Counted from the first letter of the stretch, positions 26,017 through 59,860 are shown. The stretch: DNA of 60,256 nt from Candidatus Micrarchaeota archaeon (GCA_021850705.1 JAJZKU010000004.1:1-60256), one strand, 5' to 3'. The notes: generated by a model from the letters alone, not told the origin. Numbers and translations: made by a program.

Positions 26017-26219
26017 GCGAACCGCCCGAATCAGATCAAATATGACGTTCCTAATCCTTCTAAACTCTAATAATCAGAAGCGCTTATATCTTTCCAGTAA
26101 GACATATTTACATTACTAAAACTCCTTATTAATTCCTTATGCAGAGCTTCTCTCGCACGAATAACATGAACATTCCCAGAAATAGCAATTACTGAATTAT
26201 GCTTTTTATCAGTAAACAT

Positions 26220-26657: not shown

Positions 26658-26717
26658 ACCTTAGATAAGCCCTGTAATCAAATCCTTTGCCTATATTAAA
26701 TATAACCTTAATTCTTA

Positions 26718-27356: not shown

Positions 27357-27369
27357 CTCTAGCTGTTCA

Positions 27370-39489: not shown

Positions 39490-39730
39490 GAATTTGGGAT
39501 ATCCCTTGCCGTATAACGATAAACATCATTGACGCTCCGCAGTCTTTAAAGAGTACAAGAAGAAGATCGTTTGATAGGACTGTTGCTGCGCTAGTAGGTT
39601 TGCCATTACAGATACAGCATTTCGCGCATATCAAACACCGTTGAATAACCTTAGACATTGATGATTTATATACTTTTCTGTCTTTCCCGATTCATATTTT
39701 AAAGTAAAACTCTATATACCTGCGTATCAT

Positions 39731-40219
39731 AATTAATTTGTGGAGAAATGGTACGGCAAAATACCTCTGGAGAGGTGCACAAAAAACCAGCAGATAATAA
39801 ACAAAAATACACCTTCACCTTCAAATCTGGAGACAGTGTAAGAATAAAATGAGATTCATTCTGGAGAGAGAGGGAGAAGACAGCCGAGATATGGGACATT
39901 TTATGCTCGAACTGCAGGTCAAAGGTACTTCTGTACCAGAAAGACGGGAGGGGCAAGCTACACCGGTGTTATCTCAACAGGATACTCGACCCTCCATCAT
40001 ATGCAGAGTTGCAGGATAATGTAAAAATAACAAAGGAAAACATGCCTGTTTTAATATGCAGAAAATGCCAACAAACCATCGGTTATCCAATGATGCACAG
40101 AGAAGGAAGGCTTGCCTACTTCCTGCTTAATGGTAAATGGACAAAGCAGAAAAGTGATATAATTGGAAGATAATTGAAGGAAATCTAAATAACGCATTCT
40201 GGCCTCATTGTTTAAGGAG
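39731..40219. repeat. 489-bp direct repeat, copy 1
   Basis: Matches 44487-44975 (offset 4756); 6 substitutions seen by eye. Confidence 0.93.
39748..40173 (+). pseudogene. Nonsense-disrupted copy of the Zn-ribbon gene at 44504-44929
   Basis: Codon 35 CGG (Arg) is TGA at 39850-39852. Confidence 0.88.
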
Positions 40220-40373
40220 AGGCAAAGAAGAGATTATGATACGAGAAATGAGTGCCTAAACACAACACAATGTTACTAGAATTAAGTGCATATGCGCATC
40301 GCACTTATATTATTAAAAAGATCTTTAGAAACAATCTTATATGAAAAATGATTAAGAATGAAGATGTATTGAT

Positions 40374-41573
40374 ATGAAAAAAATGCCTCTTGAGTATAAA
40401 TTTTTTATATTTTACAATACACTCTCAGTTCTGGACATGTATTTTGCCCACTGGAACAGAGTTCCTAGTCTAAACGTTGAAAAACTGCGAAAAGAGTATA
40501 CTAAAGCAGTAAAAAATTCTAAGAACAGATACGAGTTTTTTCTTGTTATGTCCAGCATGATGGCAAGGCTAAGAAACAGGCATACCTGGTACACTGACAG
40601 AAAAATATGGCAGGATTACGGTATGGGGGTGGGATTCAATGCCATATATCACGATAAACTTAGAAAGTGGATAATCACATCAAGCGAAAACCGTAAGCTC
40701 CCTATAGGCAGTGTGATAACAAAAGTAAATGGCATCTCTACTAATAAATTTTTTAACAGCAAGAAAAAATATATCCCTGCTTCAAACGAACGTGCTGCCA
40801 GAAACAACTTATTCTCTTTTGGCCCATATTTACCAAAATCTATGGATATAGAACTAAACAATAAGACCAAGGTTCATATAAACAGAACCAAATTCACCAA
40901 CACTCCCAAAGAACATACTTCCTGCAAGGTATTCAAAAATAAGATCGGCTATATTAAAATACCGAGTTTTACCGGACATAAATTCGAAAAAGCAGCCTTG
41001 AATTGCTTGAATAAAATGAATGGACTTCGTACCATCATAATAGATCTGAGAGATAATGATGGTGGAAGTACACCTTGGAATCTGCTAAAAAAACTTATAA
41101 ATAAGAAATGGGAAAGCCCAGTGTATTTTGAAGTGGTAACTCCAACTGCGCTTGAGAGGCAGCATTCAAATATCAACAAGTATAGCCAAAATGGTTACTA
41201 TATTGATAAAAATAGGATATACAAGAAAAATAATTATGTTTATACTTCATGGAAAGATGCATTCAAGGGAAAACTCATAATATTAACAAACGAATCAACC
41301 TTATCTGCTGCCGAGGACTTTTTGATACCGTTAAAATATTATAAAAGAGCAATAATAATTGGCAGTAGAACTAATGGCAGCGATGGGGATGTGTTTTTTC
41401 ACGATCTTGACAAAGATATCTTTATAGGCGTAGGGTGCGCTTCTGTCAGATTCCCAGATGGTAAAAGAATTGAAGGATTTGGTATATCTCCAGACATAGA
41501 AGTATATCCAAAGCTAACAGATATTAGAAGTAAAACAGACGTTGTCTTAAAAAGAGCCTTGGAAATGGCATAA
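40374..41573 (+). CDS. S41-family peptidase (tail-specific protease-like)
   Basis: IGYIKIPSF, IIDLRDNDGG, TLSAAEDF, IIGSRTNG, EGFGISPDI; no obvious signal peptide. Confidence 0.88.
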   Translation: MKKMPLEYKFFIFYNTLSVLDMYFAHWNRVPSLNVEKLRKEYTKAVKNSKNRYEFFLVMSSMMARLRNRHTWYTDRKIWQDYGMGVGFNAIYHDKLRKWIITSSENRKLPIGSVITKVNGISTNKFFNSKKKYIPASNERAARNNLFSFGPYLPKSMDIELNNKTKVHINRTKFTNTPKEHTSCKVFKNKIGYIKIPSFTGHKFEKAALNCLNKMNGLRTIIIDLRDNDGGSTPWNLLKKLINKKWESPVYFEVVTPTALERQHSNINKYSQNGYYIDKNRIYKKNNYVYTSWKDAFKGKLIILTNESTLSAAEDFLIPLKYYKRAIIIGSRTNGSDGDVFFHDLDKDIFIGVGCASVRFPDGKRIEGFGISPDIEVYPKLTDIRSKTDVVLKRALEMA

Positions 41574-41637
41574 TGCCATTTAATTCATAATGCCGATTAA
41601 GGATGGACACGCATAACAAGCAGTATTGTTGGTAAAA

Positions 41638-42252
41638 ATGCCCTTATCAAGAAAAACACCAGACAAACAGATCGCTAAGCTTTCAATAAATATATCATCT
41701 ATGCCTAAAGAAGCCATAGATGAGATTTGGTTTAGGGCAGGGATAATATACAAAGATCCTGAGGATAACAATGCATTGCCTGATAATGTTATAATGCAGA
41801 TTAAAAAATCCGAAAGTACTGCCTATCCGATTGTTGAAAAACTGTGTTTGGAAAAAGGTAAGGCCACAGTTGAAAAATTAGCAGATCAGGTAGAAAGATT
41901 AGATTATATAGGAAATGCTGGAATTAGCAGAAAGATACTGTCCCGTAAAACCTTCACAAATCTTTCAAGCGAGACGATAACAAAGAAGGAGCTGGCAGAT
42001 ATGGCTAAAAGAATACGCAATCTGCCTGAAAAGAAGATAGACGAGTTATGGGCTTCCCTTGGATTCATATATACAAATAAAGGGAATAACAAGGCTATGT
42101 CAAATACCACTATCAGACTCATAAAGAAGTCAAAAGAAAACGCAGAATACGAAACTCTTAGCTTCTTTGATGAAACCCATATAAATGATATAATAAAAGA
42201 GTTGCAAAGAATCCAGAACTCAATAAAGAAGAACAGTCCAAAGAAATCTTAA
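41638..42252 (+). CDS. Hypothetical protein with an internal duplication
   Basis: Two copies of LSRKT...P...IDE.W...G.IY....N.A......I..IKKS. Confidence 0.7.
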   Translation: MPLSRKTPDKQIAKLSINISSMPKEAIDEIWFRAGIIYKDPEDNNALPDNVIMQIKKSESTAYPIVEKLCLEKGKATVEKLADQVERLDYIGNAGISRKILSRKTFTNLSSETITKKELADMAKRIRNLPEKKIDELWASLGFIYTNKGNNKAMSNTTIRLIKKSKENAEYETLSFFDETHINDIIKELQRIQNSIKKNSPKKS

Positions 42253-42354
42253 ACAGCCTATCAATTTTGTATTCAGTCTCCTCATCTGAAGATTGCAACA
42301 TAATTAACATTAATGATTAAGACAATTACTATGATAACATTAAAGATAGTCTAT

Positions 42355-42567
42355 CTACTTCCTTCTTACTGATGCCAGCTCCTTAATTTCTCCACTCTTA
42401 AATGCTCTGGCTATCTGATTAAATTCAGACACAGTCATATTTGCTTTATTTCCTGCTCTATCAATCAGACTTACAGTTTGCTTCTGTTCGTCTAAAACAA
42501 ACTTAGGACAGTTGTCCCCAACTTTAGATCCTTCCTTTCCATCTACGTCGTATATCATTTTTTCCAT
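42355..42567 (-). CDS. Small protein, DUF397-like / DUF6879 partner
   Basis: SKVGDNCP motif, C-terminal EFNQIARAFKSGEI; AGGTGG RBS. Confidence 0.6.
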   Translation of the reverse strand: MEKMIYDVDGKEGSKVGDNCPKFVLDEQKQTVSLIDRAGNKANMTVSEFNQIARAFKSGEIKELASVRRK

Positions 42568-42590
42568 ATTTCCACCTAAATAAGTATTAC

Positions 42591-43160
42591 TTAACCTAAA
42601 TTAATATCATTATCCCTCAAAAACTTCTGCATTGGTATTCCAATATGCAATAGCTTATCTTTTAGTTCCAAATATCTTGATACTTCTGAATATCTTTTTA
42701 TTGGATTACTTCTAGACAAAAGATGACCTTCTGAATCATAGTTCATAAGCATTACAGTACTAGAATCAAACATCCAATAATCACTAAAACCTTTTATTAA
42801 ATCTGATACATTCTTTCGTTCAATAAATAGAAACTTTTCACCTTTCTGTTCTGCAAATAAGGACCCATACTTAATTCCAAATTTAATATAATCACTCATC
42901 GGCAAGTCAAGTACTTGTATATCCACTATAGATACTCCCCTTTTGACTGTCTGCTCAGCCTTAGACAGCCATTCATTAAATCCAGACACTTCTTTAAAAA
43001 CATCTACTGGCTTACCTTGCTTGTATTTGTTAAATGCTCCAATTTCATAGTCTATGCTATAAATATTTAAAAGTTCTAATCTAAAAATCTCAACTTTCGC
43101 TTCAGACCACAAATCGCTGAATGTTTTAACAGAATTGACTCTAGGTTTTACCTTCTCCAT
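42591..43160 (-). CDS. DUF6879-like protein
   Basis: IFRLELLNIYSIDYE, MSDYIKF, GEKFLFI, DYWMFDSSTVMLMNYDSEG. Confidence 0.7.
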   Translation of the reverse strand: MEKVKPRVNSVKTFSDLWSEAKVEIFRLELLNIYSIDYEIGAFNKYKQGKPVDVFKEVSGFNEWLSKAEQTVKRGVSIVDIQVLDLPMSDYIKFGIKYGSLFAEQKGEKFLFIERKNVSDLIKGFSDYWMFDSSTVMLMNYDSEGHLLSRSNPIKRYSEVSRYLELKDKLLHIGIPMQKFLRDNDINLG

Positions 43161-43180
43161 AAAAATATTGAGCCACTATA

Positions 43181-44254
43181 TTATTTATATGTTACGAATT
43201 TAATCGGTTTTTTACTGATTGCTTCCATTTCACATCTCCATTTTACGTAACTGTTTGTATTAAATGGCCACATTCCAGTTATCAACTCCGTCAACATACA
43301 TTGCTCTACATACGGATACTCATTATGCCATGCTTTTTTTAGGAATTCAGGTCCTGTCTCATTAAGGCAAACGCCATCTTTAAAATTACAAAAATACACT
43401 GCATCAAAATATCCTGTCGTATCACATACTACAGAATAATCTGAAGTAACTTGCCCTTCACTTTTAGAACCAATTACTTTGTAAAGAAAAGGCAATAATG
43501 ACATTTTATGATGATTTTCATTTGGTATAATTACTTCTGCATAAAATAGAAATATTCGCTTATCTGGATTTTGTACACACATTCTAAAACCCTTTATTAT
43601 GCCCTTTTCAACCAATTTATTAATTGCATATATTACCCTCATTTTGGATACTCCTGTTGCTGCTGCCAACTCTCCTAATCTTATTCTGGAATTATCAAGC
43701 AATTTTGTCAATATTAATTTTTCCACTTTATTTATACGCTCAACTTTGGCCCTTGTAATTAACGTACTCTTCACTGGCATGAATCCTTCAACCATATCAT
43801 TAAGCGTCACGGTCTTTACCCTTGGCTTATAAAAAGACAAGCCAACTCTAAACGCAAATTCCCAATGCTTATATTTAACATAGTCCATCCCCACTATATG
43901 TATAATAAGATCAAAATCTCCTGTTGCAAGATATGCGTTCTGAACAAACGGATCTTTCCCAAGGACCTTCTTTAAAAGAGCTATATCGGGAACTCTTTCC
44001 TGAAACTTTATTGCAATTATTCTAGGCTCTGAGAAACCAAGAAGGTTTGTATCTACGTCTAATGTATACTTAAGATTATACTTCTCTTCACACTCCTTAA
44101 GGCATTTGGAAAGCGTATGGTGGGATATTCCTAGCTTGCGCTCAAGCTCCTTTATGGAAACCCTTGAATTAAGGTAAAGCTCCTTAAGCAGTTCATGAGG
44201 AAGTTTTTCCTCTATTCTCTTCCTCTGATAAGATGATGCTGACATGTTATACAC
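43181..44254 (-). CDS. Tandem Lrp/AsnC-type regulator (paralog of 28630-30045)
   Basis: LYLNSRVSIKELERKLG, ATGDFDL, LLDNSRIRLGELA, LVEKGIIKGF, TTGYFD. Confidence 0.82.
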   Translation of the reverse strand: MYNMSASSYQRKRIEEKLPHELLKELYLNSRVSIKELERKLGISHHTLSKCLKECEEKYNLKYTLDVDTNLLGFSEPRIIAIKFQERVPDIALLKKVLGKDPFVQNAYLATGDFDLIIHIVGMDYVKYKHWEFAFRVGLSFYKPRVKTVTLNDMVEGFMPVKSTLITRAKVERINKVEKLILTKLLDNSRIRLGELAAATGVSKMRVIYAINKLVEKGIIKGFRMCVQNPDKRIFLFYAEVIIPNENHHKMSLLPFLYKVIGSKSEGQVTSDYSVVCDTTGYFDAVYFCNFKDGVCLNETGPEFLKKAWHNEYPYVEQCMLTELITGMWPFNTNSYVKWRCEMEAISKKPIKFVTYK

Positions 44255-44390
44255 AAAATTAAACTATTTGTTATATTATTTTAAATTATAATACAATATA
44301 TTACAAATTATATAATATTTTATGCTATATATTTTATTTCTTGCAATAAGTATTTAAATCATGCATGTGCAAGCCTGTACTGGTGGTGAA

Positions 44391-44492
44391 ATGGCGGGCA
44401 TGCAAGCTGTAAAGAAAATTGATCAGTGCATGCTAGTTAAAACCCTATCCAACCCAGCTGCTGGATTTTCCAGCAGCTTTATGCTAAATTAA
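44391..44492 (+). CDS. Putative 33-aa leader ORF
   Basis: GGTGGTGA RBS; MAGMQAVKKIDQCMLVKTLSNPAAGFSSSFMLN; TATTTAAA box upstream. Confidence 0.3.
   Translation: MAGMQAVKKIDQCMLVKTLSNPAAGFSSSFMLN
44456..44480 (+). terminator. Perfect 10-bp hairpin followed by a short T run
   Basis: AGCTGCTGGA-TTT-TCCAGCAGCT-TT immediately before repeat copy 2. Confidence 0.45.
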
Positions 44493-44975
44493 TTTGTGGA
44501 GAAATGGTACGGCAAAATACCTCCGGAGAGGTGCACAAAAAACCAGCAGATAATAAACAAAAATACACATTCACCTTCAAATCTGGAGACAGTGTAAGAA
44601 TAAAACGGGATTCATTCTGGAGAGAGAGGGAAAAGACAGCCGAGATGTGGGACATTTTATGCTCGAACTGCAGGTCAAAGGTACTTCTGTACCAGAAAGA
44701 CGGGAGGGGCAAGCTACACCGGTGTTATCTCAACAGGATACTCGACCCTCCATCATATGCAGAGTTGCAGGATAATGTAAAAATAACAAAGGAAAACATG
44801 CCTGTTTTAATATGCAGAAAATGCCAACAAACCATCGGTTATCCAATGATGCACAGAGAAGGAAGGCTTGCCTACTTCCTGCTTAATGGTAAATGGACAA
44901 AGCAGAAAAGTGATATAATTGGAAGATAATTGAAGGAAATCTAAATAACGCATTCTGGCCTCATTGTTTAAGGAG
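44487..44975. repeat. 489-bp direct repeat, copy 2
   Basis: Matches 39731-40219. Confidence 0.93.
44504..44929 (+). CDS. Zn-ribbon hypothetical protein
   Basis: CSNC and CRKC pairs, LYQKDGRGKLHRCYLNRI. Confidence 0.8.
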   Translation: MVRQNTSGEVHKKPADNKQKYTFTFKSGDSVRIKRDSFWREREKTAEMWDILCSNCRSKVLLYQKDGRGKLHRCYLNRILDPPSYAELQDNVKITKENMPVLICRKCQQTIGYPMMHREGRLAYFLLNGKWTKQKSDIIGR

Positions 44976-45018
44976 GTGAAAGCATGAATAAACATTTATT
45001 AAAAAAGAGCTAAACTAT

Positions 45019-47046
45019 ATGGTTGGAGATGAACATAATAACAATAATCTAGGTGGTTTATTGCGATCTGAAAATTATATATATTTTAGAAATACTGAAG
45101 AACCGCGCATTGATGATTTAGGTGGAAAGGGATATGGGCTTGCTAAGTTACAAAATGCAGGGTTCAACGTTCCAAAATTTTTTATAATCACGACTTCTGC
45201 ATTAGAAAAATTATTAGAGTCAAATAACTCTTCTTTGGACAACTTATATAAGTACAAAGAAGACTTCTCCTCTAAGATAATGGGGATGAAGTTTCCAGAC
45301 GACCTTAGATCAAGTATAATTGGCACATATAAAGATATGTTCGGCAATGAACCGGTTGCAGTAAGAAGTTCTGCCACAATAGAAGATACGGAAAAAGATA
45401 GCATGGCAGGCAGGTTCGAGACTATTCTTAATGCAAATGAGAGCAATATGCTAGACTCGGTTAAAAAAGTGTATTGTTCATTGGTAAAAATCTGTAAAGA
45501 TTCTGGAATAAAATCTTCAATGGCGGTAGTTGTACAAAAACAAGTTTTTCCAAAGAAAAGCGGCGTTGCGTTTGTTGATAACGAGAAAACAGTTATAAAT
45601 GCAGTAATAGGCCACCCAGGTCTTTTAGTATCCGGAATGGAAAGCGGTGATACCTGCGTTATAGATAACGGCGGGAAATACTCTTCGATATATAAGCCAC
45701 AAAAAAGATTAACTATAAATGGGGATAATACAGAAGATATTCCTAAAATAATATCAACAAAACAAAAAATATCCAAATTCGAGGCTATAGAAATTGCAAG
45801 CACCTCAAAAAAGGTAATGGAGTCATTAGGAAAGCCTCAGGATATAGAATGGTGTTTTGCTAATAACGAATTATTCATACTTCAAGCTAGACCTATAACC
45901 AAGACAGTAGATATTCCAAAGGGCTCTTCTTCTATAGGTCTACTGCCAGTATCTATCGGGATAGCAGAGGGCATTCCATGGTCAAAAGTTGACCAGATAC
46001 CTGAAAATGATGTTATACTAACTGTTCCTTATCTAGAATTGAGCGATGCGGATAAGTTAGTGAATAATCCAAACATAAAAGGGATCATAACAGAATTTGG
46101 AGGCATGTTGTCACACGAAGCAATACTTGCAAGAGAAAAAGGCATACCATATCTGGCAGGTTTCAGAAGTCCTTCAGCAATACTGGCTGGTGTATCGCAT
46201 TTAAAATTAGATACCCAGAAAATAAGCATAATTGCAGACGGTAAAGAGATGATAATATCGGAACCAGAAAGTTACATGTGGCTAGACAAGAATTTTGATA
46301 ATCTCCACAATATACTGTACAAAAATAACGATTACGGCCTGCTGGTAAGAAATATTGGCAGATTTATCATAGTATACCGGGATATTAAAACAAAAGAGGA
46401 TATGGAAAACGTTGAACACGCAATAAAAGATTGCAATGCCTTCGGTAACGATTTTATATTGGTATTTGAGACAAACGATAGAACCTTAACAGCTATGCGC
46501 ATGCTAAATATAAATCCTCTAAATTCTGAACCATTGATATATTCAAATCTAAAGAGCATGGAGAAAGCCGTAAGCGAGTTTAATGTTGAACTATTAAACA
46601 AAGCATATTCAAAATCTAAAAGTGATTTCTTTTCATGTGCAGAACAATCTATAAAAGACTATGAATTATATAAAGGCAGTAAAACCGATGAGAATCTTAA
46701 AAAAGTATCTAAATCAGTATTGATGGCAGAAGGTGCTTACAGGGCGATAAGATCGATGACTGATTATTATGAGTATTCGTTGGGAAACCTTATAACAAAA
46801 AATGAGGGAAGACTAATAACCGACATTGAATTGTACAAACTAAAAACCAAATACGAAGAAAAGTACCCTAATATAAAAGAAACAAGTCTAAAGCTACAGG
46901 AAATATTAGAAGACGTTGACAGATCACAATATACTAATGCTGGCAATCAGTCATCATATACTGATATTGCTAAAAATGTTTTAAGCGATTTACAGAAAAA
47001 ACTAAGTGAAGATAAATTCAAACGCACAATATTATATCTGGACTAG
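45019..47046 (+). CDS. PEP-utilizer-type dikinase (ATP-grasp + phospho-His swivel + unrecognised C-terminal domain)
   Basis: LGGKG, VAVRSSATIED, SMAGRFET, MAVVVQ, PQDIEW, LQARPIT, GGMLSHEAILAREKGIP. Confidence 0.85.
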   Translation: MVGDEHNNNNLGGLLRSENYIYFRNTEEPRIDDLGGKGYGLAKLQNAGFNVPKFFIITTSALEKLLESNNSSLDNLYKYKEDFSSKIMGMKFPDDLRSSIIGTYKDMFGNEPVAVRSSATIEDTEKDSMAGRFETILNANESNMLDSVKKVYCSLVKICKDSGIKSSMAVVVQKQVFPKKSGVAFVDNEKTVINAVIGHPGLLVSGMESGDTCVIDNGGKYSSIYKPQKRLTINGDNTEDIPKIISTKQKISKFEAIEIASTSKKVMESLGKPQDIEWCFANNELFILQARPITKTVDIPKGSSSIGLLPVSIGIAEGIPWSKVDQIPENDVILTVPYLELSDADKLVNNPNIKGIITEFGGMLSHEAILAREKGIPYLAGFRSPSAILAGVSHLKLDTQKISIIADGKEMIISEPESYMWLDKNFDNLHNILYKNNDYGLLVRNIGRFIIVYRDIKTKEDMENVEHAIKDCNAFGNDFILVFETNDRTLTAMRMLNINPLNSEPLIYSNLKSMEKAVSEFNVELLNKAYSKSKSDFFSCAEQSIKDYELYKGSKTDENLKKVSKSVLMAEGAYRAIRSMTDYYEYSLGNLITKNEGRLITDIELYKLKTKYEEKYPNIKETSLKLQEILEDVDRSQYTNAGNQSSYTDIAKNVLSDLQKKLSEDKFKRTILYLD

Positions 47047-47183
47047 CTACTAATAAATTTATCAACTAAGAATAATCTATATATCGCATTGAATATTTTA
47101 TCAATGACACATCAAGATATCAAGCTATAGAGGGTGCTGGCTAGTAAGAACTGAATCTGTATAGAATTTAGAAGGTAATATCT

Positions 47184-49292
47184 ATGGGCATATCATATTC
47201 AAGAAGTTTTATATCGATAAAAAATGATTACAAGTCAAAAGAATTATTAGTAAATACAGATGAAATCGGGGGCAAGAGTAGTTCTTTACTTATCCTGTCT
47301 GAAAGATTCAATGTTCCTAGTGGGATAATACTCACCACTGGCACCTTTGATGAATATCTAGAACAAAACGGACTATTAAAAATTCTCGAGAAGAATCAAA
47401 AGGGAAAGAGTAAACTGAAAGATCTGAACAAGGCACTGTCAAATTCTGCAATACCTGAAATCACACTCAAAAGCCTTGAAAGGAGATTAGATGAATTGGG
47501 AATGATTGGGCATCCTCTTATAGTAAGAAGTTCAGCAACAGCTGAAGACTCTGAGACAGCCAGTTTTGCAGGAAGGTTCAGAACGGTAATAAACGTAAAC
47601 GGGATAGAACAAGTGGCAAAAGCAATAAAGGAAGTGTATGACTCTGCATACAGTCCAGAAGTGATATCCTACTGCCATGAAGTCGGCATTCCTCTTAAGA
47701 AGATAAAAATGGCAGTGGTAATCCAGAAACTTATTATTGGCAGTTATTCAGGAGTTATGTTTACGCGGGATCCTGTAAATCTTGCAGACAAGACAATAAT
47801 AGAAGCAATATCTGGACTTAATGAGGGCATGGTCTCAGGAAAGATAACCCCAAGCAGATTTGTGTTTGACAACAAGGACCACAGAATAGAGTCTTCGGAT
47901 TATGTTCTGCAGAACAAGATCTTTGTGCCTGACGCTAATTGTGGCACTAGAATATCGGATCTCAATTCAGGTTCAGTCAGGAGGCTTCCAAAGGCTATTC
48001 TGTATAAGCTTGCAGAGATGGGTCTTGAGATAGAAAAAACCTTTGGATTACCTCAAGATATAGAATGGACTGTAAAAGACGGAAAAATATACATACTCCA
48101 GAGCAGGAGCATAACTACAGGAAGGAAAAATACAGCCACAAACGCGGTCACAAGCAATTCTGGAACGGCACTAATAGGCTATCCTGCATCGGCAGGAATG
48201 GCCTCAGGTAAGATAAAGAAGATAAGCGGTCCAGGTGAGAATATACCTAAGGGCATAGTGCTTGCATTGGATGTTCTCGATACCGACTACTCAACAGAAT
48301 CAGTTAAGGGTGTAAAGGCCATAGTGACACAGGATGGAGGAGTATTATCACATGCTGCCATAGTGGCAAGAGAGCTTGGAATACCATGTGTTGTGGGGGT
48401 AGAAGGCATAATGGAAAAGGTAAAGGATGGTAATAAGGTAGTGGTTGACGGGACTAACGGCGTAGTATACATGAACAGCATCTCTTCAGGAATCAGTACC
48501 GAGCGAAGAATTGATTACAGTTATCTATATGATTTTGACAGAATGTTAAAACTTGGCAAAAAGGACATATACTATGAAGAATTCGATGACAGGGTTATAT
48601 ACTACTCATATCCTGAACTTGGCAAAAATGATCTTAAAAAGTTATTCGGAAAAGCGTACCGTGAAGGCAAGGATATTAAGAGAGGCGGTGCTCCGAAGAA
48701 TTACATATGCCATAGGTATTACGAATATAAGCAGAACATGATACTTAACAGACTTACAGAGTCTGCAATAGGAGCAGCAAGATCATGCAAACCTGAACTT
48801 ATTGAAAAAGTGTCTAAAAACCTTCTAAAAGAGGCCACCAAGTGCATGAGTCAGTACGATAAAATTCCAGGGGAAGGAAGGAAAGCCTATCTGGAAAGGC
48901 TGTCAAAGCTCCTTCATGCAGAATGGTGCTATACCTTAGTAAATGAACTAATATGCGAAGGATATGGGATAACCTCATTGCAGAGAAAGCTGAATCCTAT
49001 CCTGAGCCCAATGGGAAAGGACATAAGCTATTTCCTTGATGCGGTTGACTCAAATGGCAATATTTATGTTAAAGGGCTAAGTGCAGGGCAGAGAGAGGCG
49101 CTTAACGATGCAGTTAAATACTACAGGAAACTCAAAGAGTGGCGTCTTGGATCATATCCCAAATTCAGATCAGTAGGGGCCACAGGTTCGGATTTCGAAG
49201 ATAAGTTCAAAAAGACCATATCAAAACTTTCAAAGGATGGTCAAAGCAGGGATAGGATCATGGAAGAAGCCACGCGATATATAAATCGCTAA
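47184..49292 (+). CDS. PEP-utilizer-type dikinase paralog
   Basis: IGGKS, IVRSSATAED, SFAGRF, SGVMFTRDP, PQDIEW, LQSRSIT, GGVLSHAAIVARELGIP, VVVDGTNG. Confidence 0.88.
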   Translation: MGISYSRSFISIKNDYKSKELLVNTDEIGGKSSSLLILSERFNVPSGIILTTGTFDEYLEQNGLLKILEKNQKGKSKLKDLNKALSNSAIPEITLKSLERRLDELGMIGHPLIVRSSATAEDSETASFAGRFRTVINVNGIEQVAKAIKEVYDSAYSPEVISYCHEVGIPLKKIKMAVVIQKLIIGSYSGVMFTRDPVNLADKTIIEAISGLNEGMVSGKITPSRFVFDNKDHRIESSDYVLQNKIFVPDANCGTRISDLNSGSVRRLPKAILYKLAEMGLEIEKTFGLPQDIEWTVKDGKIYILQSRSITTGRKNTATNAVTSNSGTALIGYPASAGMASGKIKKISGPGENIPKGIVLALDVLDTDYSTESVKGVKAIVTQDGGVLSHAAIVARELGIPCVVGVEGIMEKVKDGNKVVVDGTNGVVYMNSISSGISTERRIDYSYLYDFDRMLKLGKKDIYYEEFDDRVIYYSYPELGKNDLKKLFGKAYREGKDIKRGGAPKNYICHRYYEYKQNMILNRLTESAIGAARSCKPELIEKVSKNLLKEATKCMSQYDKIPGEGRKAYLERLSKLLHAEWCYTLVNELICEGYGITSLQRKLNPILSPMGKDISYFLDAVDSNGNIYVKGLSAGQREALNDAVKYYRKLKEWRLGSYPKFRSVGATGSDFEDKFKKTISKLSKDGQSRDRIMEEATRYINR

Positions 49293-49460
49293 TCAGACGT
49301 AGAAAATTACTATACAGGCCCTGCACCAGTATAATGTCTTTGCATGTATGCAAAAGGCTAAAATAACTTATACATGAATAATAATCGGGGATACGGCTCC
49401 ATCGTATGGGCACTATTTAGCATCAATTATAACTGATGATTCTAAAAAGAGTAAAACCTG

Positions 49461-50090
49461 ATGAGTATGTATAAACACATAATCTTCGCCTTAGGAGGAG
49501 TCTTCCTTAATCTCATGGGTCAGCATTCAGGAGTGCCAAAACAGCTTTCAGAGGCACTTTCCATACCTGAAAGTGATGCAGAAAGGCTATGGAAAGAGAA
49601 CAGGGAGAAGCTCCTTACGGGAAAAGAGTCGCCAAAACAGTTTCTGGACCGTGTTGTTAAGGTAGTTTATGGCAATGCTGACATGGACGAAGTTCATTCA
49701 AGATGGAAGGCAAGTGACAGAGTGAGAGAAGATCAGATAAACTGGCAGCTTGTTGATTATGTGGAACAGCTAAAAAAGAGCGGCTACCTGATACACATGC
49801 TTACTGACACTATCGATTTAAGCAGGAAGACGGATCCAATTGTGAAGGAAATAGACAGTCATTTCCATAATGTCTTCAAATCCTATGAAGAAGGGATAAA
49901 GAAGCCTGATAAAGAAGCTTTCATCAATGCGCTCAAGAAGATCAAAGCCGAGCCTGATGAGTGCGTTTTTGTAGATGATTATGAATCAAATGTAAAAGCA
50001 GCAAGCGAACTTGGGATTACCGCAGTGCAGTTCACCACTACAGAAAACCTCAAGGAAAGTTTTGAAGAACTAGGGATAAAAATATCATAA
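49461..50090 (+). CDS. HAD-family protein (motif I Asp replaced by Ala)
   Basis: IIFALGGV, KKPD, VFVDDYESNVKAA. Confidence 0.8.
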   Translation: MSMYKHIIFALGGVFLNLMGQHSGVPKQLSEALSIPESDAERLWKENREKLLTGKESPKQFLDRVVKVVYGNADMDEVHSRWKASDRVREDQINWQLVDYVEQLKKSGYLIHMLTDTIDLSRKTDPIVKEIDSHFHNVFKSYEEGIKKPDKEAFINALKKIKAEPDECVFVDDYESNVKAASELGITAVQFTTTENLKESFEELGIKIS

Positions 50091-50194
50091 ACATGTTCAA
50101 TTAGAGAAAAATAAAGTAATGGAAACATACCATGCAAAATAACATGATCCGTATGCAAATGTTTTAGAATGGCTTAAAGCCTAATGTGGGGGAA

Positions 50195-50788
50195 ATGATA
50201 AAATTAATACTCTTTGATATGGGCGGAATAATAAACAACAACACGAGTGGAGGTTATATTGACTATCTTTGCAAGGTTTCTGGGAAGAACAAAGATGAGG
50301 TGGTAAGAGTTGTAAAACCAATTACAACAAAGCTCTCAATATCTGCAATAAGTCTTCAAGAGGCAGAAAGATTAATTGCAGAAGGACTGAGTGTAGAAAT
50401 TGGGCAAATCAAGTTCCTAGAATATTATAAAGAACATCTAAAAATAAACGATCAAAACGTGGAGTTTATCCGATTGCTTAAAAAGAAATACAAGTTGGCC
50501 AGTTTAACAAACAATGAGGAAAACAGATACAGGTATGCAGTATCACAGCTTGGCAACAATTTTTTTGATTTTGAATTCCCTTCATCAAGAATGCATTATA
50601 GGAAACCTGATAAGCGTGTATACGAGTTCGTAAAAGAAGAAACAGGATTTGAGTATAACGAGATGCTCTTCATAGAAGATACTGATGAAAACCTTTCAGT
50701 AGCAAGAGAGCTAGGAATTAACACTATACTATTTGACAATCTTTATGGCATGAAGAAGGATATGCGAAAGCTTGGGATAAAAGTATGA
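50195..50788 (+). CDS. HAD-family phosphatase
   Basis: ILFDMGG, SLTNN, RKPD, LFIEDTDENL. Confidence 0.85.
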   Translation: MIKLILFDMGGIINNNTSGGYIDYLCKVSGKNKDEVVRVVKPITTKLSISAISLQEAERLIAEGLSVEIGQIKFLEYYKEHLKINDQNVEFIRLLKKKYKLASLTNNEENRYRYAVSQLGNNFFDFEFPSSRMHYRKPDKRVYEFVKEETGFEYNEMLFIEDTDENLSVARELGINTILFDNLYGMKKDMRKLGIKV

Positions 50789-50942
50789 TGATGTGCTGTT
50801 GCAAAACACATGGCTATGAAAGTAACGGCAAAACTGATTGAATTAGGATATAAAGACACTAAGGACGAATAACAACTGCCAAGAAGCTTGGAAAACAGTA
50901 AAGTTAATTATACACCTTGTATTTATTACTAATAACAATGGT

Positions 50943-51545
50943 GTGGTCATTAGGAAAGCCGATATAATATTCGCAACATCAAACAAGGGAAAGGTAGAGT
51001 TAGCCAACGAGAGGCTCAACAGGTACGGCATTAATATAACTCAGCAAACCGCTTCGGTTCAGGAAATACAATCCATTGATGTGGAAGAGGTGGCCCTGCA
51101 TAAGGCAAGACAGCTTGAAGGGATAATAAAAAAGCCCTTTTTCGTAGAGGATTCGGGTCTTTACATAGACAAGCTTAACGGTTTCCCAGGAGCGCTGCTG
51201 AAGCCTGTAATGGATACTATAAAGGATGATCATCTGCTGAAGATGCTATCAGGAGAAGAAAACAGGTCTGCATGTATAAAGAGCGTGCTGGCATATTACG
51301 ATCCTGTATCAAATACTGAAAAGCTCTTTATCGGAATCTACAAAGGCAGGATCTCAGAGGAGGAACGCGGAAATGATACGCGAGGCTGGAAAGTTTCACG
51401 CATATTCATACCTGATAACTTTGAGAAAACACTGGCAGAGATGGACGATGATGACTGGGCCAGAACTCTGGAAGAATCAAGGAAGGATGACCATTTCTAT
51501 AAGTTCGGGGAATGGTTCTCAAAAAATAACCAAGTGCCGATATGA
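50943..51545 (+). CDS. Ham1/ITPase-family NTP pyrophosphatase (divergent)
   Basis: FATSNKGK, EIQS, VEDSGLYI, GFPG, KTLAEM. Confidence 0.85.
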   Translation: MVIRKADIIFATSNKGKVELANERLNRYGINITQQTASVQEIQSIDVEEVALHKARQLEGIIKKPFFVEDSGLYIDKLNGFPGALLKPVMDTIKDDHLLKMLSGEENRSACIKSVLAYYDPVSNTEKLFIGIYKGRISEEERGNDTRGWKVSRIFIPDNFEKTLAEMDDDDWARTLEESRKDDHFYKFGEWFSKNNQVPI

Positions 51546-52123
51546 AAATAACATTCATAACTACGAATAATGTAAAGTTCAACATCGCCTGTGATGTACT
51601 ATCCAGATACGGGATAACTGTGGAGCAGCGCAAGATGGAGCTTTCTGAACTGAAGACCATTAATTTAGACGATGTTGTAATGGACAAGGCAAAGCAGGTT
51701 GCCAAGACCTTCAAAGAGAATTTTATTGTGGATGATTCCGGTCTTTACATTGACGCTTTGGCAGATTTTCCAGGTGCTCTCTTCAAACCAACCATATATA
51801 CGCTTGGAGAAGAGAAATTCCTCAGGCTGATGAACGGTGAAAAAAACCGCAGAGCACGTTTTGTAAGCGAATTGATCTTCTATAATTCTAAAACCAATGA
51901 ATTCTCTCTTATTCCGACTATCATGACCGGGACAATTGTTGATACAGTTAGCACTGGAACCAGGCGTGTGGGCTACTCTTTAGAGAGAATATTTGTGCCA
52001 GACAGAGAGAAAAAGCCAATCGCAGAGATGGATGATAAAGAATGGGAGGCGTTATACTCCAGGACAAAGACTAAATTACACTATGAAGAACTTGGCAGGA
52101 AACTGAGCTCTGATAAAGGTTAA
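51542..52123 (+). CDS. Ham1/ITPase-family NTP pyrophosphatase (divergent), second copy
   Basis: FITTNNVK, VDDSGLYI, DFPG, RIFVP, IAEM; start overlaps the upstream stop (ATGA). Confidence 0.85.
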   Translation: MKITFITTNNVKFNIACDVLSRYGITVEQRKMELSELKTINLDDVVMDKAKQVAKTFKENFIVDDSGLYIDALADFPGALFKPTIYTLGEEKFLRLMNGEKNRRARFVSELIFYNSKTNEFSLIPTIMTGTIVDTVSTGTRRVGYSLERIFVPDREKKPIAEMDDKEWEALYSRTKTKLHYEELGRKLSSDKG

Positions 52124-52154
52124 TACTATTAAAAAATAAATAGGAAGATTTAAG

Positions 52155-52760
52155 ATGGCCGAAGAAATCGAACTAAAATTCCTAATAAGCGATTATCACA
52201 AGGTATTCCATAGAATACTCTCTATCGGAGAACATGAAAAAACTGCATACGAATTAACGGTTATGTATGATAACGATAAGAAAACTTTATACAAAGAAGA
52301 TTCAAGGTTAAGGCTAAGGAAGATTATCGATTTAAAAGATGACAGAGAATCTTGCGAACTGAGTTATAAAAAACCTAAAACCAGGGAAGGAATAAAGATA
52401 GAAGAGGAAATAGAAGTAGAAACTTCTTCATTTAAAGATTCCGAAGAAATATTAGCCAGGTTGGGTTATCGCAGTGTCAGCAGCTACGAAAGGATAAGAG
52501 ATACCTTTAGGGTAAACACCTGCAAAGTCACCCTAGACAATTTCCCATTTGGTTATATTTTAGAGATAGAAGGAGACGAAGAAAATATTAAAAATGTAGC
52601 TAAAAGGTTAAACTTCAACCTAAAGGATAACACTACGAAATCCTGCGACGATATATATGCGGAGATATGCAAAACAAATCACAAAGAGGCAAAAAAAGAT
52701 ATTCTATTTGAAGGTTTATCATTACAAAACCTAAAAAGGCAGCATAAAACGCAATCCTGA
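52155..52760 (+). CDS. CYTH domain protein (class IV adenylate cyclase-like)
   Basis: EIELKF, RLRLR, SYKKP, EEIE, YERIR, LEIEG. Confidence 0.85.
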   Translation: MAEEIELKFLISDYHKVFHRILSIGEHEKTAYELTVMYDNDKKTLYKEDSRLRLRKIIDLKDDRESCELSYKKPKTREGIKIEEEIEVETSSFKDSEEILARLGYRSVSSYERIRDTFRVNTCKVTLDNFPFGYILEIEGDEENIKNVAKRLNFNLKDNTTKSCDDIYAEICKTNHKEAKKDILFEGLSLQNLKRQHKTQS

Positions 52761-52787
52761 TTAAATATATGTAAATGTAAGAAATGT

Positions 52788-53567
52788 ATGGTGAAACAAA
52801 TGGGAAATAAGATATCAAAGCACTTCTTTTCAAAATACAAATCTGAAGAGAGCAAGGAATACAAAAAAGACATAACGGCAAAAGTCCGTTTCATAAATAA
52901 TGCCAACAAACGCTTCCTAAAAGGCAGGGGAAGGAAGATGCTCGATGTTGGATTCGGAAATGCACCTTTGATACCATATCTGGGCAGTAAGTATGAGATA
53001 TCAGGAGTAGACATAAGCAAGGAGAATGTGGCAAAGGCAAGGAAAAACTATCCTAAACTAAAGTTCTTCAAGGCAGACATGCGAAACTTTAGGACAAACG
53101 GCAAGTATGACATAATAATATCTGTATGCGCGATTGATCACGGTGATGGCTTAAGGAAGGGACTGGGAAAGACGATCAAAAGCATGGCAAAACACCTGAA
53201 TGAGAGGGGCATTATACTGTTCGACACTCCTCTATCATTAGACAGCTGGCAGAGAGAGTCTTCATTCGAGTGCGATGGCAGGCTGATAGGCGAGAGAGGC
53301 ACAAAGTACTGTTTTGTGAATCACAGGCAATGCGGCAAGCAAAAAGGTTCAGGCTCTACCTATTCTGTCTCGATAAAAGCAAACGGCAAAGGCATATCAG
53401 TTGAGACTAGCGATATATTTCCTGCAAAATACCTTGTAGGGGTGGATCAGGTAAAGGCAATTGCAAAGAAAAATGGATTCAGGGCATATGTCTATGATGG
53501 TTGGGAAGCCAAAAGCCCAAAGAGCGGCAAATTCACCAAAGACCCTGTCTTCATACTGGCAAGATGA
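52788..53567 (+). CDS. Class I SAM-dependent methyltransferase
   Basis: MLDVGFGNA, GVDIS, KADMRNF, YDIII, HLNERGIILFD. Confidence 0.85.
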   Translation: MVKQMGNKISKHFFSKYKSEESKEYKKDITAKVRFINNANKRFLKGRGRKMLDVGFGNAPLIPYLGSKYEISGVDISKENVAKARKNYPKLKFFKADMRNFRTNGKYDIIISVCAIDHGDGLRKGLGKTIKSMAKHLNERGIILFDTPLSLDSWQRESSFECDGRLIGERGTKYCFVNHRQCGKQKGSGSTYSVSIKANGKGISVETSDIFPAKYLVGVDQVKAIAKKNGFRAYVYDGWEAKSPKSGKFTKDPVFILAR

Positions 53568-53678
53568 AATGCCTGTTTAATAAGCGCACTTGCGGCTAAG
53601 CAGCAGTGCAATCTCCAATATCGCTATGGAATATGGCAAACTCTTTAAATCCAACATGAGAATAAGGAGTGTGATGTT

Positions 53679-54572
53679 TTGAACTATCTGGTAGCTGTGC
53701 CGGTTGACAAGAGCCTGGCGGAATTCATAGGCAAGAAGGGTGGAGAGAACGGGATAACCTTCTACAACAGGAAAGCGGATGAGAATGTGATAGTGGCGCT
53801 CTTCCCTACGAATGCGCAGGAGAAGTTCTACGGCTTTGTGGAGAGCATGCTGCTCGCGGACCAGATAGTGATAAGCACTGCAAATGTTGACAGATTACTT
53901 GGAGAGGCGCTGATAACGGCAGAGCTGCTTGGAAAACATCTGATAATAACAGAGGAGAATGACATAAAGGCGCTTCTTGCAGGAACGGGCATAAAGGACT
54001 TTGAATTCTCCTCAAAGGAGCAGCTGCTGGAGAAGATAGCTGCATACAAGGGAAAGGACCAGGGTACAGGAGTGCGCATAGACATAGACCAGGCATTCCC
54101 TGTAAAGGGCATAGGCTCAGTGGCGCTTGGCATAGTGACAAGGGGCACCGTGAAGGTGCATGACAAGCTCATCCATAGCTCCGGAAAGGAGGTGGAGATA
54201 AAGTCAATACAGTCCCAGGATGTGGACCAGAAAGAGGCTTCAAGGGGCACGCGGGTAGGGATAGCGATGAAGGGCATAGACTCGGATGAGATGGCAAAGG
54301 GAGACATACTGTGCAATACGAGAATACCAAAGGTAAAGTCCCTAACTCTCTCAATGAAGAAGAGCGCCTTTGTGGCAGAGGAGCTAAAGGAAGGTGGCAG
54401 GTATATGATAGCAGCAAATTTCTCACACTCTATAGCATTCCTTGACAATCCAAAGGAGATGCGCTTCACGCTCGAGAAGCCGCTTGCAATTGAAAAAGGT
54501 CAGCAGGTTGCTGTATCAAGGGAGCAGCAGCCAAGGGTATTCGCAAGCGGAACGGTACTGGGAGTGGAATGA
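53679..54572 (+). CDS. SelB-like / EF-Tu-related protein with degenerate G domain
   Basis: IGKKG...ITFYN, IDQAFPVKGIGSVALG, IKSIQSQD, RVGIAMKG. Confidence 0.8.
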   Translation: MNYLVAVPVDKSLAEFIGKKGGENGITFYNRKADENVIVALFPTNAQEKFYGFVESMLLADQIVISTANVDRLLGEALITAELLGKHLIITEENDIKALLAGTGIKDFEFSSKEQLLEKIAAYKGKDQGTGVRIDIDQAFPVKGIGSVALGIVTRGTVKVHDKLIHSSGKEVEIKSIQSQDVDQKEASRGTRVGIAMKGIDSDEMAKGDILCNTRIPKVKSLTLSMKKSAFVAEELKEGGRYMIAANFSHSIAFLDNPKEMRFTLEKPLAIEKGQQVAVSREQQPRVFASGTVLGVE

Positions 54573-57822: not shown

Positions 57823-58644
57823 TTGGCTAAGCAATCCAAAGAATGGATAAGAAAACGAGTCGAATCGAGGAAAGGTTACCATCCAACAGAAGAGACATTA
57901 AGAAAACAGAGCGAGGCCAAGAAAGGATCTAAAAATCCAATGTATGGAAAACCTAGAAGCCAGGAAGCGATACAAAAATTTATTGTTACTAGAGCTGGAT
58001 ATAAGCATTCTAATGAAACACGTCAGAAGATCAGGGAAGCAAGACTCAGATTTTATAAGGAACATCCTGAAGCAATTCCAAAAGGCGAAAAAAATCCAAT
58101 GTATGGAACAATCAGTGTTTGGCGTGACAAACACCTTCCAGAAAAAATAAGATTAAAAATTAGTCAACAGCGAAAAGGCAAATATAACGGATCGGATAAC
58201 CCTTTCTTTGGAAAGAGGCATACTGAACATACAAGAGAAATAATGAAAGACAAATGGAAACACAGATCTTTCAAGGAAAAAGATAATAAGCTAGAATTAA
58301 GATTTCAGAAAGAGCTAAAAATAAGAAATATTATTTTTCAGAAACAAGCAGAGATTCTTGGAAGGCCAGACATTTTTATACAACCAAACATCTGTATATT
58401 TGTAGATGGTTGTTACTGGCATGGTTGTAAATGCAAATTCAATCCAGAATGGAGTGGCGAACATGCAGAATACATAAAGAGTAGGATGAAACATGATATT
58501 GAAGTAAACCAAAAACTTCATGAGGCAGGCTATGTTGTACTCAGATTCTGGGAACACGAAATTCTTGGAGATATCAATTCATGCATTTCAAAAATAAATT
58601 CCTATTATAAAATTGAAGATGGTAGAAAATATGATAGTAAATAG
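57823..58644 (+). mobile_element. Free-standing putative homing endonuclease gene (NUMOD3 repeats + Vsr-like nuclease)
   Basis: Repeated GSKNPMYGK / GEKNPMYG / DNPFFGKRHT and HSNETRQKI; GRPDIF, IFVDGCYWHG, VLRFWEHE; AT-rich relative to the cys genes. Confidence 0.8.
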
Positions 58645-59860
58645 GGTAACTCTCCTCGGTAACAAGGATCACGGCAAGTCGACTCTGATCGGCAGCCTTC
58701 TGATAAGCACGGGTTCGGTATCTGAACAGAGGATAAACGATGCGAAGAAGACCAGCAAGAAGCTGGGCAGGCAGTTCGAACCAGGTTACATACTCGACAG
58801 CTTCCAGGAGGAGCGGGAAAACGAGATGACAATAGATACTACAAGGGCGCAGGTCAAGTACAAGGATACGGGTTTTGAATTCATAGACGTTCCAGGACAT
58901 GAAGAGCTGATGAAGAACATGCTCAGCGGAGCTTCATATGCGGATTTTGCCCTTCTGATAGTCTCCGCGAAGAAGGACGAAGGGATAACGGAGCAGACCA
59001 AGAGGCATCTATTCGTTGCAAAGTTGATGGGCATAAACAGGATAATCGTAGCCGTGAACAAACTTGACACGGTAGGCTATGGCAAAGATCGTTTTGATGA
59101 GATAAAAACAGGCATAACCGATTACCTGCAAAGGATAGGCTTCGATGCAGAGTCAATCAGCTTCGTGCCGGTCTCCGCGTACAATTCCGAGAATCTGGTA
59201 AGAAGATCCAAGAGCATGAAGTGGTACAAGGGGAACAGCCTGATAGACACGCTTGTAGAATTATCGCATTCAAGGAAGAGGAGCAATGGCAAGGAGCTGC
59301 TTATCCTTCTTCAGGGAACTTCCGAGGATGACAGAAAATCAGTCTTCGGAAAGGTACTATCAGGAGAACTGAGAAAAGGGGAGAGGATAAAGATACTCCC
59401 TGACGGCAAGGAAGCAGATGTAAAGCAGATCTTCGTAAGCGGAAGAAAGCGTTCAAAGGCAACATTCGGCAATGTCGTTACACTGGAGCTGAACAGGGAG
59501 ATAGGGAATGGTGTAAAGGGATCGGTGGCATGCACCAACACGAAAGCATGCAGGGTAGAGAGCTCCGCAGATGCCCTATTCTTCGATACAAGGCCGCTCA
59601 AAGGCAGATTATCGATAAAGATGAACAGTGTAGAGATACCGTGCAGGAAGGTAGTGATCGACAGAACCGTGGATATAGCTACAGGAAACATAAAGAATAA
59701 TGGCAGCATAAAGCCACTGCAGGCAGCATACATCAGGCTGACATTCCCAAGGGATATAGCATTCGAGGACTTCGAAAAGATACCGGAACTGGGAAGGTTT
59801 GTCCTCTATTCCGATAAGAAGTTCGCAGGAATAGGGGTCATAAAGGACCAGTCTCGTTAA
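58631..59860 (+). CDS. cysN: Sulfate adenylyltransferase subunit 1 (EF-1alpha-like GTPase)
   Basis: GNKDHGKST, EERENEMTID, DVPGH, NKLD, PVSA, LGRFVL; follows cysD. Confidence 0.85.
   Translation: MIVNRVTLLGNKDHGKSTLIGSLLISTGSVSEQRINDAKKTSKKLGRQFEPGYILDSFQEERENEMTIDTTRAQVKYKDTGFEFIDVPGHEELMKNMLSGASYADFALLIVSAKKDEGITEQTKRHLFVAKLMGINRIIVAVNKLDTVGYGKDRFDEIKTGITDYLQRIGFDAESISFVPVSAYNSENLVRRSKSMKWYKGNSLIDTLVELSHSRKRSNGKELLILLQGTSEDDRKSVFGKVLSGELRKGERIKILPDGKEADVKQIFVSGRKRSKATFGNVVTLELNREIGNGVKGSVACTNTKACRVESSADALFFDTRPLKGRLSIKMNSVEIPCRKVVIDRTVDIATGNIKNNGSIKPLQAAYIRLTFPRDIAFEDFEKIPELGRFVLYSDKKFAGIGVIKDQSR

Follow-up and report, generated by a model that had tools for sequence, protein, structure and literature searches.

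Eight co-oriented genes, among them two for dikinases, two for HAD-family and two for Ham1-family proteins, lie side by side in the DNA of a Candidatus Micrarchaeota archaeon and raise a simple question: do they encode one pathway, or have unrelated genes come together at one site? They occupy positions 45019..53567 of contig JAJZKU010000004.1 (assembly GCA_021850705.1), whose 60,256 nucleotides were analysed over their full length and are called the window here. The sequence-only reading of this DNA proposed a pathway that makes, salvages or detoxifies a non-canonical nucleotide or a phosphorylated metabolite, and named the accretion of unrelated cassettes as the alternative. Our analysis favours the alternative. 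We put at roughly 55% the probability that the cluster belongs to an accreted island of low guanine-plus-cytosine content (GC), in which hydrolases for nucleotide house-cleaning and salvage stand beside unrelated dikinases, with no single conserved pathway. Accretion fits the variable gene order and content, an empty site in a related genome, the mosaic GC and the missing synteny elsewhere.

Nine genes in a low-GC island

All eight open reading frames (ORFs) are on the plus strand. Pfam confirmed the family assignments and with them the general chemistry that had been read from the sequence, namely phospho-His kinases, phosphatases and hydrolases of nucleoside triphosphates or other triphosphates. 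Three features had been overlooked: a ninth gene, zn141, an Ala in place of the nucleophile Asp in HAD1, and the lack of a phosphoenolpyruvate (PEP)/pyruvate barrel in the dikinases. The cluster forms the right-hand part of an about 14-kb, low-GC, recombination-prone accessory island. The island and its right-hand genes are as follows, with Pfam E-values in brackets.

39490..53678, no strand: variable low-GC island, from the end of the ABC-transporter ATPase gene (39489) to the EF-Tu-domain-2 gene (53679)
44504-44929, plus strand: zn141, 141 aa, two CxxC motifs and sub-threshold Yippee/RIG-I-CTD matches
45019-47046, plus strand: DK1, dikinase, 675 aa (PPDK_N 1.7e-47, PEP-utilizers 1.1e-11)
47184-49292, plus strand: DK2, dikinase, 702 aa (PPDK_N 6.4e-64, PEP-utilizers 9.3e-21)
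49461-50090, plus strand: HAD1, 209 aa (Hydrolase 8.7e-13)
50186-50788, plus strand: HAD2, 200 aa (Hydrolase 1.4e-12)
50943-51545, plus strand: Ham1a, 200 aa (Ham1p_like 3.9e-34)
51542-52123, plus strand: Ham1b, 193 aa (Ham1p_like 6.4e-24)
52155-52760, plus strand: CYTH, 201 aa (CYTH 4e-10)
52788-53567, plus strand: MT, class I S-adenosylmethionine (SAM)-dependent methyltransferase, 259 aa (Methyltransf_25 4.3e-10)

The first six genes are, as had been noticed, adjacent pairs of divergent paralogues. The dikinases share 31% identity over 410 aa, in the N-terminal two domains only, the HAD proteins 29% over 117 aa and the Ham1 proteins 36% over 189 aa, and the GC within the pairs is unequal. 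Judged by these alignments, the pairs are old and are not tandem duplicates.

Gene order and content vary within the genus

The genome that carries the cluster, G000, belongs to a tiny symbiotic DPANN archaeon (Micrarchaeota) of acid mine waters and measures about 0.65 Mb (646,820 bp in 24 contigs, 79% complete); the window is its contig C11. KaiC, V4R and EF-1-alpha-type factors are archaeal markers in it. The comparison genomes are all incomplete metagenome-assembled genomes, so "not found" is not to be taken as "absent". The unpublished genome G038 adds a single row to the per-genome tallies.

The genes that flank the island, for an ABC-transporter ATPase and an EF-Tu-domain protein, are 14.2 kb apart in the window. 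In the same-genus genome G003 (88% complete) the same two genes are about 0.5 kb apart (locus L073, ATPase match to 5449, EF-Tu-domain match from 6009), and no Ham1 gene was found in G003, G004 or G005. The GC of the island genes is 0.31-0.43, below the mean of 0.444 over the ORFs of the genome and the 0.48-0.50 of the flanks. It is low in CYTH (0.340), DK1 (0.345) and HAD2 (0.348) and higher in DK2 (0.404), Ham1b (0.405), HAD1 (0.413), MT (0.424) and Ham1a (0.434). Such a gene-to-gene mosaic points to separate origins.

The order also differs in each genome. The window has zn141-DK1-DK2-HAD1-HAD2-Ham1a-Ham1b-CYTH-MT. G002 has DK2-HAD2-CYTH-like-transglutaminase-Ham1a-Ham1b-MT-AbiE and is without DK1, HAD1 and zn141. 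G001, whose contig begins within HAD2, has HAD2-(180 aa)-HAD1-transglutaminase-Ham1a-Ham1b-CYTH-zn141-MT-AbiE. The order Ham1a-HAD1-CYTH-NUDIX-zn141-(182 aa)-Ham1b-MT was found in G006, and this island holds no dikinase. Ham1a, Ham1b and MT are thus present in all four island-bearing genomes, every one of which also has one or more HAD and one or more CYTH-type genes, and zn141 is present in three of the four.

The neighbourhood is not kept in other genomes

If the cluster encoded one pathway, its genes might be expected together elsewhere as well, and a synteny survey had been suggested as the check. We examined 11 dikinase-relative loci outside the orthologous locus. One batch covered 74 of the 120 listed ORFs (those nearest the gene) and the other all 52 ORFs within about 6.5 kb. 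No HAD, Ham1 or CYTH gene was found among the scanned ORFs at any of the 11 loci, and a NUDIX gene lay within about 4 kb at two of them (G032, G150). At three of the 11 a radical-SAM/SPASM gene of the peptide-maturase type directly precedes the dikinase (G026, L014 7262-11529; G037, L016 7349-11148; G040, L018 8218-11393), and in G026 a spermidine-synthase-like gene comes next. This adjacency suggests that some of the dikinases could modify a peptide or a small molecule. A full-text literature search returned no paper joining PEP-utilizing, radical SAM and RiPP (ribosomally synthesized and post-translationally modified peptide). The remaining dikinase loci adjoin genes for DpnII restriction-modification, Fic/PIN/AbiEii, primase, thymidylate synthase-DHFR, helicase, and tricarboxylic acid (TCA)-cycle or malic enzymes.

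The methyltransferase gave the same picture. MT homologues occur in 16 of 401 genomes of the phylum. Relatives of about 25-33% identity were examined at nine loci, leaving aside the island genomes and a near-identical fragment in G010. None of the nine adjoins a Ham1, HAD or CYTH gene. A canonical Ham1 gene is 10.3 kb away at one locus, a NUDIX gene is nearby at two, and at one the MT relative follows the winged helix-turn-helix (wHTH)-DUF6879 pair described below. The outcome cautions against taking co-oriented and thematically alike genes in a rearrangement hot spot for a pathway.

Hydrolases are clustered beyond chance

In the genome as a whole, Pfam gave 27 matches to NUDIX (13), HAD PF00702 (9), CYTH (3) and Ham1 (2). 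The 13 NUDIX matches in this 0.65-Mb genome compare with 2-15 per relative, a high share for a small genome. Five of the 27 matches fall in the 8,549-bp cluster (P = 0.0069 for a stretch holding at least five; 20,000 random placements), so the clustering exceeds chance, and 12 of the 27 are on contig C11, which is 9.3% of the genome. All three CYTH genes of the genome lie at most about 0.2 kb from a HAD, NUDIX or Ham1 match; the third adjoins a NUDIX gene on another contig.

The genomes of DPANN archaea are tiny and their metabolites are taken from a host, yet this one spends at least 27 genes on these four families and keeps them in variable islands. This investment suggests that hygiene of the nucleotide pool, or conflict fought with nucleotides, weighs heavily on such symbionts, a pressure that has been little studied. 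In a full-text literature search, DPANN and Ham1 were not joined in any paper, and the matches for Micrarchaeota, nucleotide and Nudix were off-topic, judged by title and the start of the abstract.

A second co-oriented cluster lies at 23341-27874 on the minus strand of the window. It consists of NUDIX (NudE-like), CYTH, HAD, an AAA_33 P-loop kinase, NUDIX, DUF2268 (a predicted Zn protease) and NUDIX genes, and most of them are low in GC.

The Ham1 pair keeps the catalytic residues and has lost the base-reading motifs

Ham1a and Ham1b match the Pfam family well (118.6 and 85.3 bits, cut-off 22.5). They remain below the cut-off of TIGR00042 (127.9 and 94.9 bits vs 145.35) and also miss that of NF011396. 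Across an alignment of 12 sequences T12, N14, K17 and D70 never vary, and E41 and K54 hardly do. In Ham1 proteins the GFGxD loop and the SHR motif read the purine base. The loop carries a 2-residue insertion in all nine sequences of the divergent subfamily to which the pair belongs. No remnant of SHR is left in the six Ham1a-type sequences, and at least Ham1b of the window keeps the Arg (LYSR vs LSHR). The three canonical Ham1 proteins of Micrarchaeota keep both motifs (3/3).

The pair belongs to the same fold family as the solved archaeal Ham1/ITPase enzymes, Mj0226 (1b78/2mjp) and PH1917 (1v7r), and keeps their catalytic T/N/K, E, K, D-S/G and FPG residues (E 7.2e-32 for Ham1a against 1b78, E 5.2e-22 for Ham1b against 1v7r). 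It differs from them in the GFGxD insertion, in the xxxHY-type segment that stands in place of SHR in the divergent subfamily, and in being present as two copies. Because the base-reading motifs are replaced, the substrates of Ham1a and Ham1b are probably not ITP or XTP. The subfamily also occurs as a single copy in other genera (G012, G033), and the genomes of this genus (64-89% complete) yielded no canonical one. A Ham1 subfamily that keeps its catalytic core and has lost the motifs for hypoxanthine and xanthine is a concrete target for enzymology.

CYTH, HAD, methyltransferase and zinc proteins

CYTH carries the ExExK motif as EIELK at residues 4-8 and scores 40.3 bits in Pfam (cut-off 23.2). 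Its best solved relative is the Saci_0718 triphosphate tunnel metalloenzyme (PDB 7ns8), which belongs to the same fold family and likewise has ExExK (E 2.6e-7, residues 4-150); the similarity is low. An assignment as class IV adenylate cyclase CyaB was rejected (TIGR00318 47.2 bits vs cut-off 57.95).

HAD2 belongs to the HAD-IA phosphatases and has its nucleophile Asp in motif I (FDMGG). The corresponding motif of HAD1, a HAD-IA phosphatase-like protein, is FALGG, with Ala10 encoded by gcc at 49488-49490, against FDFGG in G001 and G006 and a gat codon in G001. Contigs from the metagenome runs X2, X12 and X13 cover the gcc site with no differences. The substitution indicates that HAD1 is probably catalytically dead.

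The closest solved relatives of HAD2 are the HAD-IA v3 domain of drimenol synthase and the N-terminal phosphatase of soluble epoxide hydrolase. For MT the best solved relative is the N,N-dimethyltransferase 3bxo (E 2.8e-7).

The ninth gene product, zn141, has the CxxC pairs C53/C56 and C104/C107, about 50 residues apart. Orthologues are present in the islands of G001 (88%) and G006 (68%), and another stands beside MT in G010. Its matches stay below threshold: all three zn141 members tested match Yippee-Mis18 (best E 0.022), RIG-I_C-RD gives 0.011 and YPEL5 in the PDB E 0.26, and the Atlas labels one zn141 match "putative Yippee" (score 0.88). For zn141 they hint at a beta-tent zinc fold, probably of the Yippee/RIG-I-CTD type.

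Both dikinases end in rare acceptor domains

DK1 consists of an ATP-grasp domain (residues 33-296), a His domain (330-398) with His366 (codon 46114-46116) and a C-terminal domain (about 400-675). DK2 is built likewise, with ATP-grasp at 26-322, a His domain at 355-426 with His390 (codon 48351-48353) and a C-terminal domain at 440-702 that contains a conserved CEGY motif. The GGK, RSS, ED, LQxR and SH residues and the E of the QDIEW-type motif are invariant in 18/18 aligned dikinases. The PEP/pyruvate barrel PF02896 had no match in DK1, in DK2 or anywhere in the 79%-complete genome, and the PEP_synth model TIGR01418 scores 130 bits for DK1 and 250 for DK2 against a cut-off of 739.75.

Both proteins keep the ATP-grasp and the His-swivel of PpsA but end in rare, unassigned acceptor domains. 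The 263-residue C-terminal domain of DK2 gave 17 matches among 1.84 billion representative proteins at E<=1e-3, and 11 of the 17 are proteins of 675-735 aa with the same architecture. Among 401 sampled genomes of the phylum it occurs in 11, all in two families of one order. For the DK1 domain a word-based search gave only three proteins, all of the same architecture. By sequence, neither domain has a match in Pfam or the PDB. Homology between the two was not detected and is neither shown nor excluded (hhalign probability 1.3%). The single pointer to the fold, an Atlas feature match to the "Rph fourth domain" (0.89), is below the threshold of the tool and serves as a lead only.

In the metagenome-contig scan with alignment A2 none of 80 pattern matches was confirmed, and the scan of the genome-contig collection gave only four loci, of which one was new. 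The viral-contig scans found no relatives of the DK2 acceptor domain or of Ham1a. The PHROGs library gave generic matches only.

Of the known systems, PpsA (PDB 8a8e, 2ols) is alike in having an ATP-grasp followed by a central phospho-His swivel, in the same order and with invariant catalytic His and ATP-grasp residues, and the profile of the 18 dikinases matches 8a8e at E 3.4e-112. It differs in the TIM barrel PF02896, in place of which DK1 and DK2 have a domain of about 265 aa, distinct in each. The same profile matches rifampin phosphotransferase (Rph, PDB 5fbs) at 1.7e-103. Rph, PigC/RedH, hydroxyphenylethanone kinase and glucan water dikinase use the same ATP-grasp and His-swivel chemistry on a hydroxyl acceptor other than pyruvate. 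In Rph the rifampin-binding domain lies between the ATP-grasp and a C-terminal His domain. The His domain of DK1 and DK2 is instead central, no sequence match of either to the rifampin-binding domain was found, and the Rph model NF041857 scores 135.5 (DK1) and 216.1 (DK2) bits against a cut-off of 999. A pair of PpsA-type dikinases with the pyruvate barrel replaced by rare domains is a second target for enzymology.

A split dikinase was found in G006 (L041 7727-10225, contig C30), where three adjacent genes outside the island encode a His-swivel protein of 118 aa, an unassigned protein of 321 aa and an ATP-grasp protein of 306 aa. Between the middle protein and the acceptor domains of DK2 and DK1, homology is neither shown nor excluded (hhalign 0.2% and 0.1%).

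A proposed role for the island genes

On the reading that we favour, genes for phosphoester and phosphoanhydride enzymes would have accumulated singly in the island. The hydrolases would form a loose set for sanitation or salvage of the nucleotide pool in an organism living on scavenged nucleotides; we infer this role and all substrates. Ham1a and Ham1b would convert some non-canonical (d)NTP into (d)NMP and pyrophosphate, CYTH would hydrolyse a triphosphate, and HAD2 would remove a monophosphate, with HAD1 presumably inactive here. MT and the Yippee-like zn141 would travel with the hydrolases. The dikinases would be separate accessory enzymes that transfer the beta-phosphate of ATP to the swivel His (His366 in DK1, His390 in DK2) and pass it on to a hydroxyl acceptor, each to its own, bound by its own C-terminal domain.

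Weighing the alternative readings

Several observations weigh against accretion and in favour of one pathway, in which a dikinase would phosphorylate a nucleoside-like acceptor, the Ham1, CYTH and HAD proteins would trim or recycle the phosphates and MT would modify the base or sugar. The genes are all co-oriented and the last four are packed as in an operon, with a 4-bp overlap of Ham1a and Ham1b followed by gaps of 31 and 27 bp to CYTH and MT. DK2 and HAD2 are neighbours in G002 as well, both Ham1 copies have a remodelled base pocket, as expected for an unusual nucleotide, and the hydrolases cluster beyond chance. The hydrolase-MT-zn141 set also recurs through four rearrangements, which could mean selection for co-location and a real functional unit. 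This recurrence is the part of the single-pathway claim that stood; synteny outside the genus did not. It may equally be shared ancestry, and since the island-bearing genomes are close kin it is weak evidence of function. The HAD proteins count against the favoured reading: the nearest solved relatives act on isoprenoid, lipid or sugar phosphates and not on nucleotides, so that a nucleotidase role is one that we infer. Against one pathway stand the 11 dikinase and nine MT loci without the expected neighbours, the G006 island, which keeps the hydrolases but has no dikinase, the gaps of 95-168 bp that separate DK1, DK2, HAD1, HAD2 and Ham1a, the separate origins to which the mosaic GC points, and the inactivated HAD1. 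Missing synteny, optional dikinases and mosaic composition thus weaken this reading, and we consider it unlikely. A looser functional link among the hydrolases remains plausible.

The hot spot also gathers the toxin-antitoxin genes AbiE, Fic and PIN in sister genomes, and a conflict-related role fits these as well as accretion does. In a defence or counter-defence locus the Ham1 pair, CYTH, HAD and the zinc protein would sense or destroy viral or signalling nucleotides, and the dikinases and toxin-antitoxin genes would be further conflict cargo. The DpnII, Fic, PIN, AbiEii and integrase genes beside dikinase relatives, the presence or absence of the island within one genus and the weak resemblance of zn141 to the RIG-I C-terminal domain agree with this, as does the match of Ham1a (E 1.4e-20) to the Ham1-like immune sensor KomB (PDB 8zsg). 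KomB belongs to the Kongming system, which combines it with the deaminase KomA and the SIR2 effector KomC. However, the 37 scanned ORFs of the window showed no SIR2 or deaminase domain, Ham1a resembles housekeeping archaeal Ham1 (1b78, E 7e-32) much more closely than it does KomB, and the catalytic residues of the Ham1 proteins are intact, as in enzymes and not in pure sensors. PADLOC had no match for the dikinases, HADs, Ham1s, CYTH or zn141 and only a generic methyltransferase-domain match for MT, the viral-contig scans were empty, and a place in a variable region says little by itself. We hold such a locus, proposed by analogy with KomB, improbable. We give similarly little credence to a dedicated DPANN system of Ham1a/Ham1b, CYTH, HAD, MT and zn141 that would recognise and destroy, or signal through, a modified nucleotide, either scavenged from host RNA or made by an archaeal virus; the dikinases with their new acceptor domains would be add-on modules of it and would, in that conflict, phosphorylate a peptide or something like a nucleoside. 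Finally, DK2 might be the PEP synthase of the lineage, with a replaced C-terminal domain, converting pyruvate to PEP and unrelated to its neighbours. Over residues 26-440 its domains follow the PpsA order, the PEP-utilizers_C barrel was not found in G000 (79% complete) or any of the five relatives with a DK2-type gene, and among the genes near DK2 relatives are those for citrate synthase (G026), NUDIX-isocitrate dehydrogenase-aconitase (G150), malic enzyme (G187) and aldehyde dehydrogenase (G337). But the barrel is also missing in 29 of 36 relatives without DK2, so there is no complementary pattern and no support for a replacement. The C-terminal domain moreover matches neither PF02896 nor, by sequence, a solved structure, it is present in only 11/401 genomes of the phylum, and the PEP_synth score is far below the cut-off. 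Such a role for DK2 is very unlikely.

A direct repeat, the island flanks and the assembly

The left-hand part of the island, in which a direct repeat of 489 bp brackets a 4.3-kb segment, contains the following features.

39731..40219, plus strand: 489-bp direct repeat, first copy, found by repeat search and alignment, with an interrupted zn141 copy at 39748-40173
40374..44254, no strand: segment between the repeat copies, four ORFs (Pfam)
40374-41573, plus strand: S41 peptidase (Pfam)
41626-42252, plus strand: 208-aa ORF within the repeat-enclosed segment
42591-43160, minus strand: DUF6879 (Pfam)
43181-44254, minus strand: double wHTH regulator (Pfam)
44487..44975, plus strand: 489-bp direct repeat, second copy, with the intact zn141 gene inside

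The two copies differ at 6 positions, and the identity extends to about 40219/44975. In the first copy zn141 is broken by an in-frame TGA at 39850-39852, which leaves a 34-aa stub followed by the remainder in the same frame. The wHTH-DUF6879 pair (window 42591-44254, minus strand) recurs with 57% and 41% identity in G073, a genome of another family (L064 5966-7607), directly before an MT homologue. This recurrence is consistent with a small mobile or regulatory module, which the pair may be.

The stretch was recovered in contigs of public mine-drainage and mine-tailings metagenome runs, which reproduces the assembly. Among these runs are X12 and X13, whose studies carry no flag as its possible source. 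In all four runs there are contigs with 6 differences starting at 44487; they represent the repeat copy at 39731 and not another strain. One X2 contig joins 44490 to 50154, and X12 contigs join 44522 to 53200 and 49813 to 50132. Such joints may come from coexisting rearranged variants in which part of the cluster is missing. On its short side each joint measures 30-47 nt, and the first two joints reach the 489-bp repeat, so no conclusion is drawn from them.

The EF-Tu-domain-2 protein on the right flank of the island (53679-54572, 297 aa) is SelB-like and has no GTPase domain match. An EF-1-alpha-like GTPase of 415 aa is encoded 4 kb downstream of it (58613-59860), preceded by a PAPS-reductase-domain gene and a NUMOD3/Vsr endonuclease-like gene.

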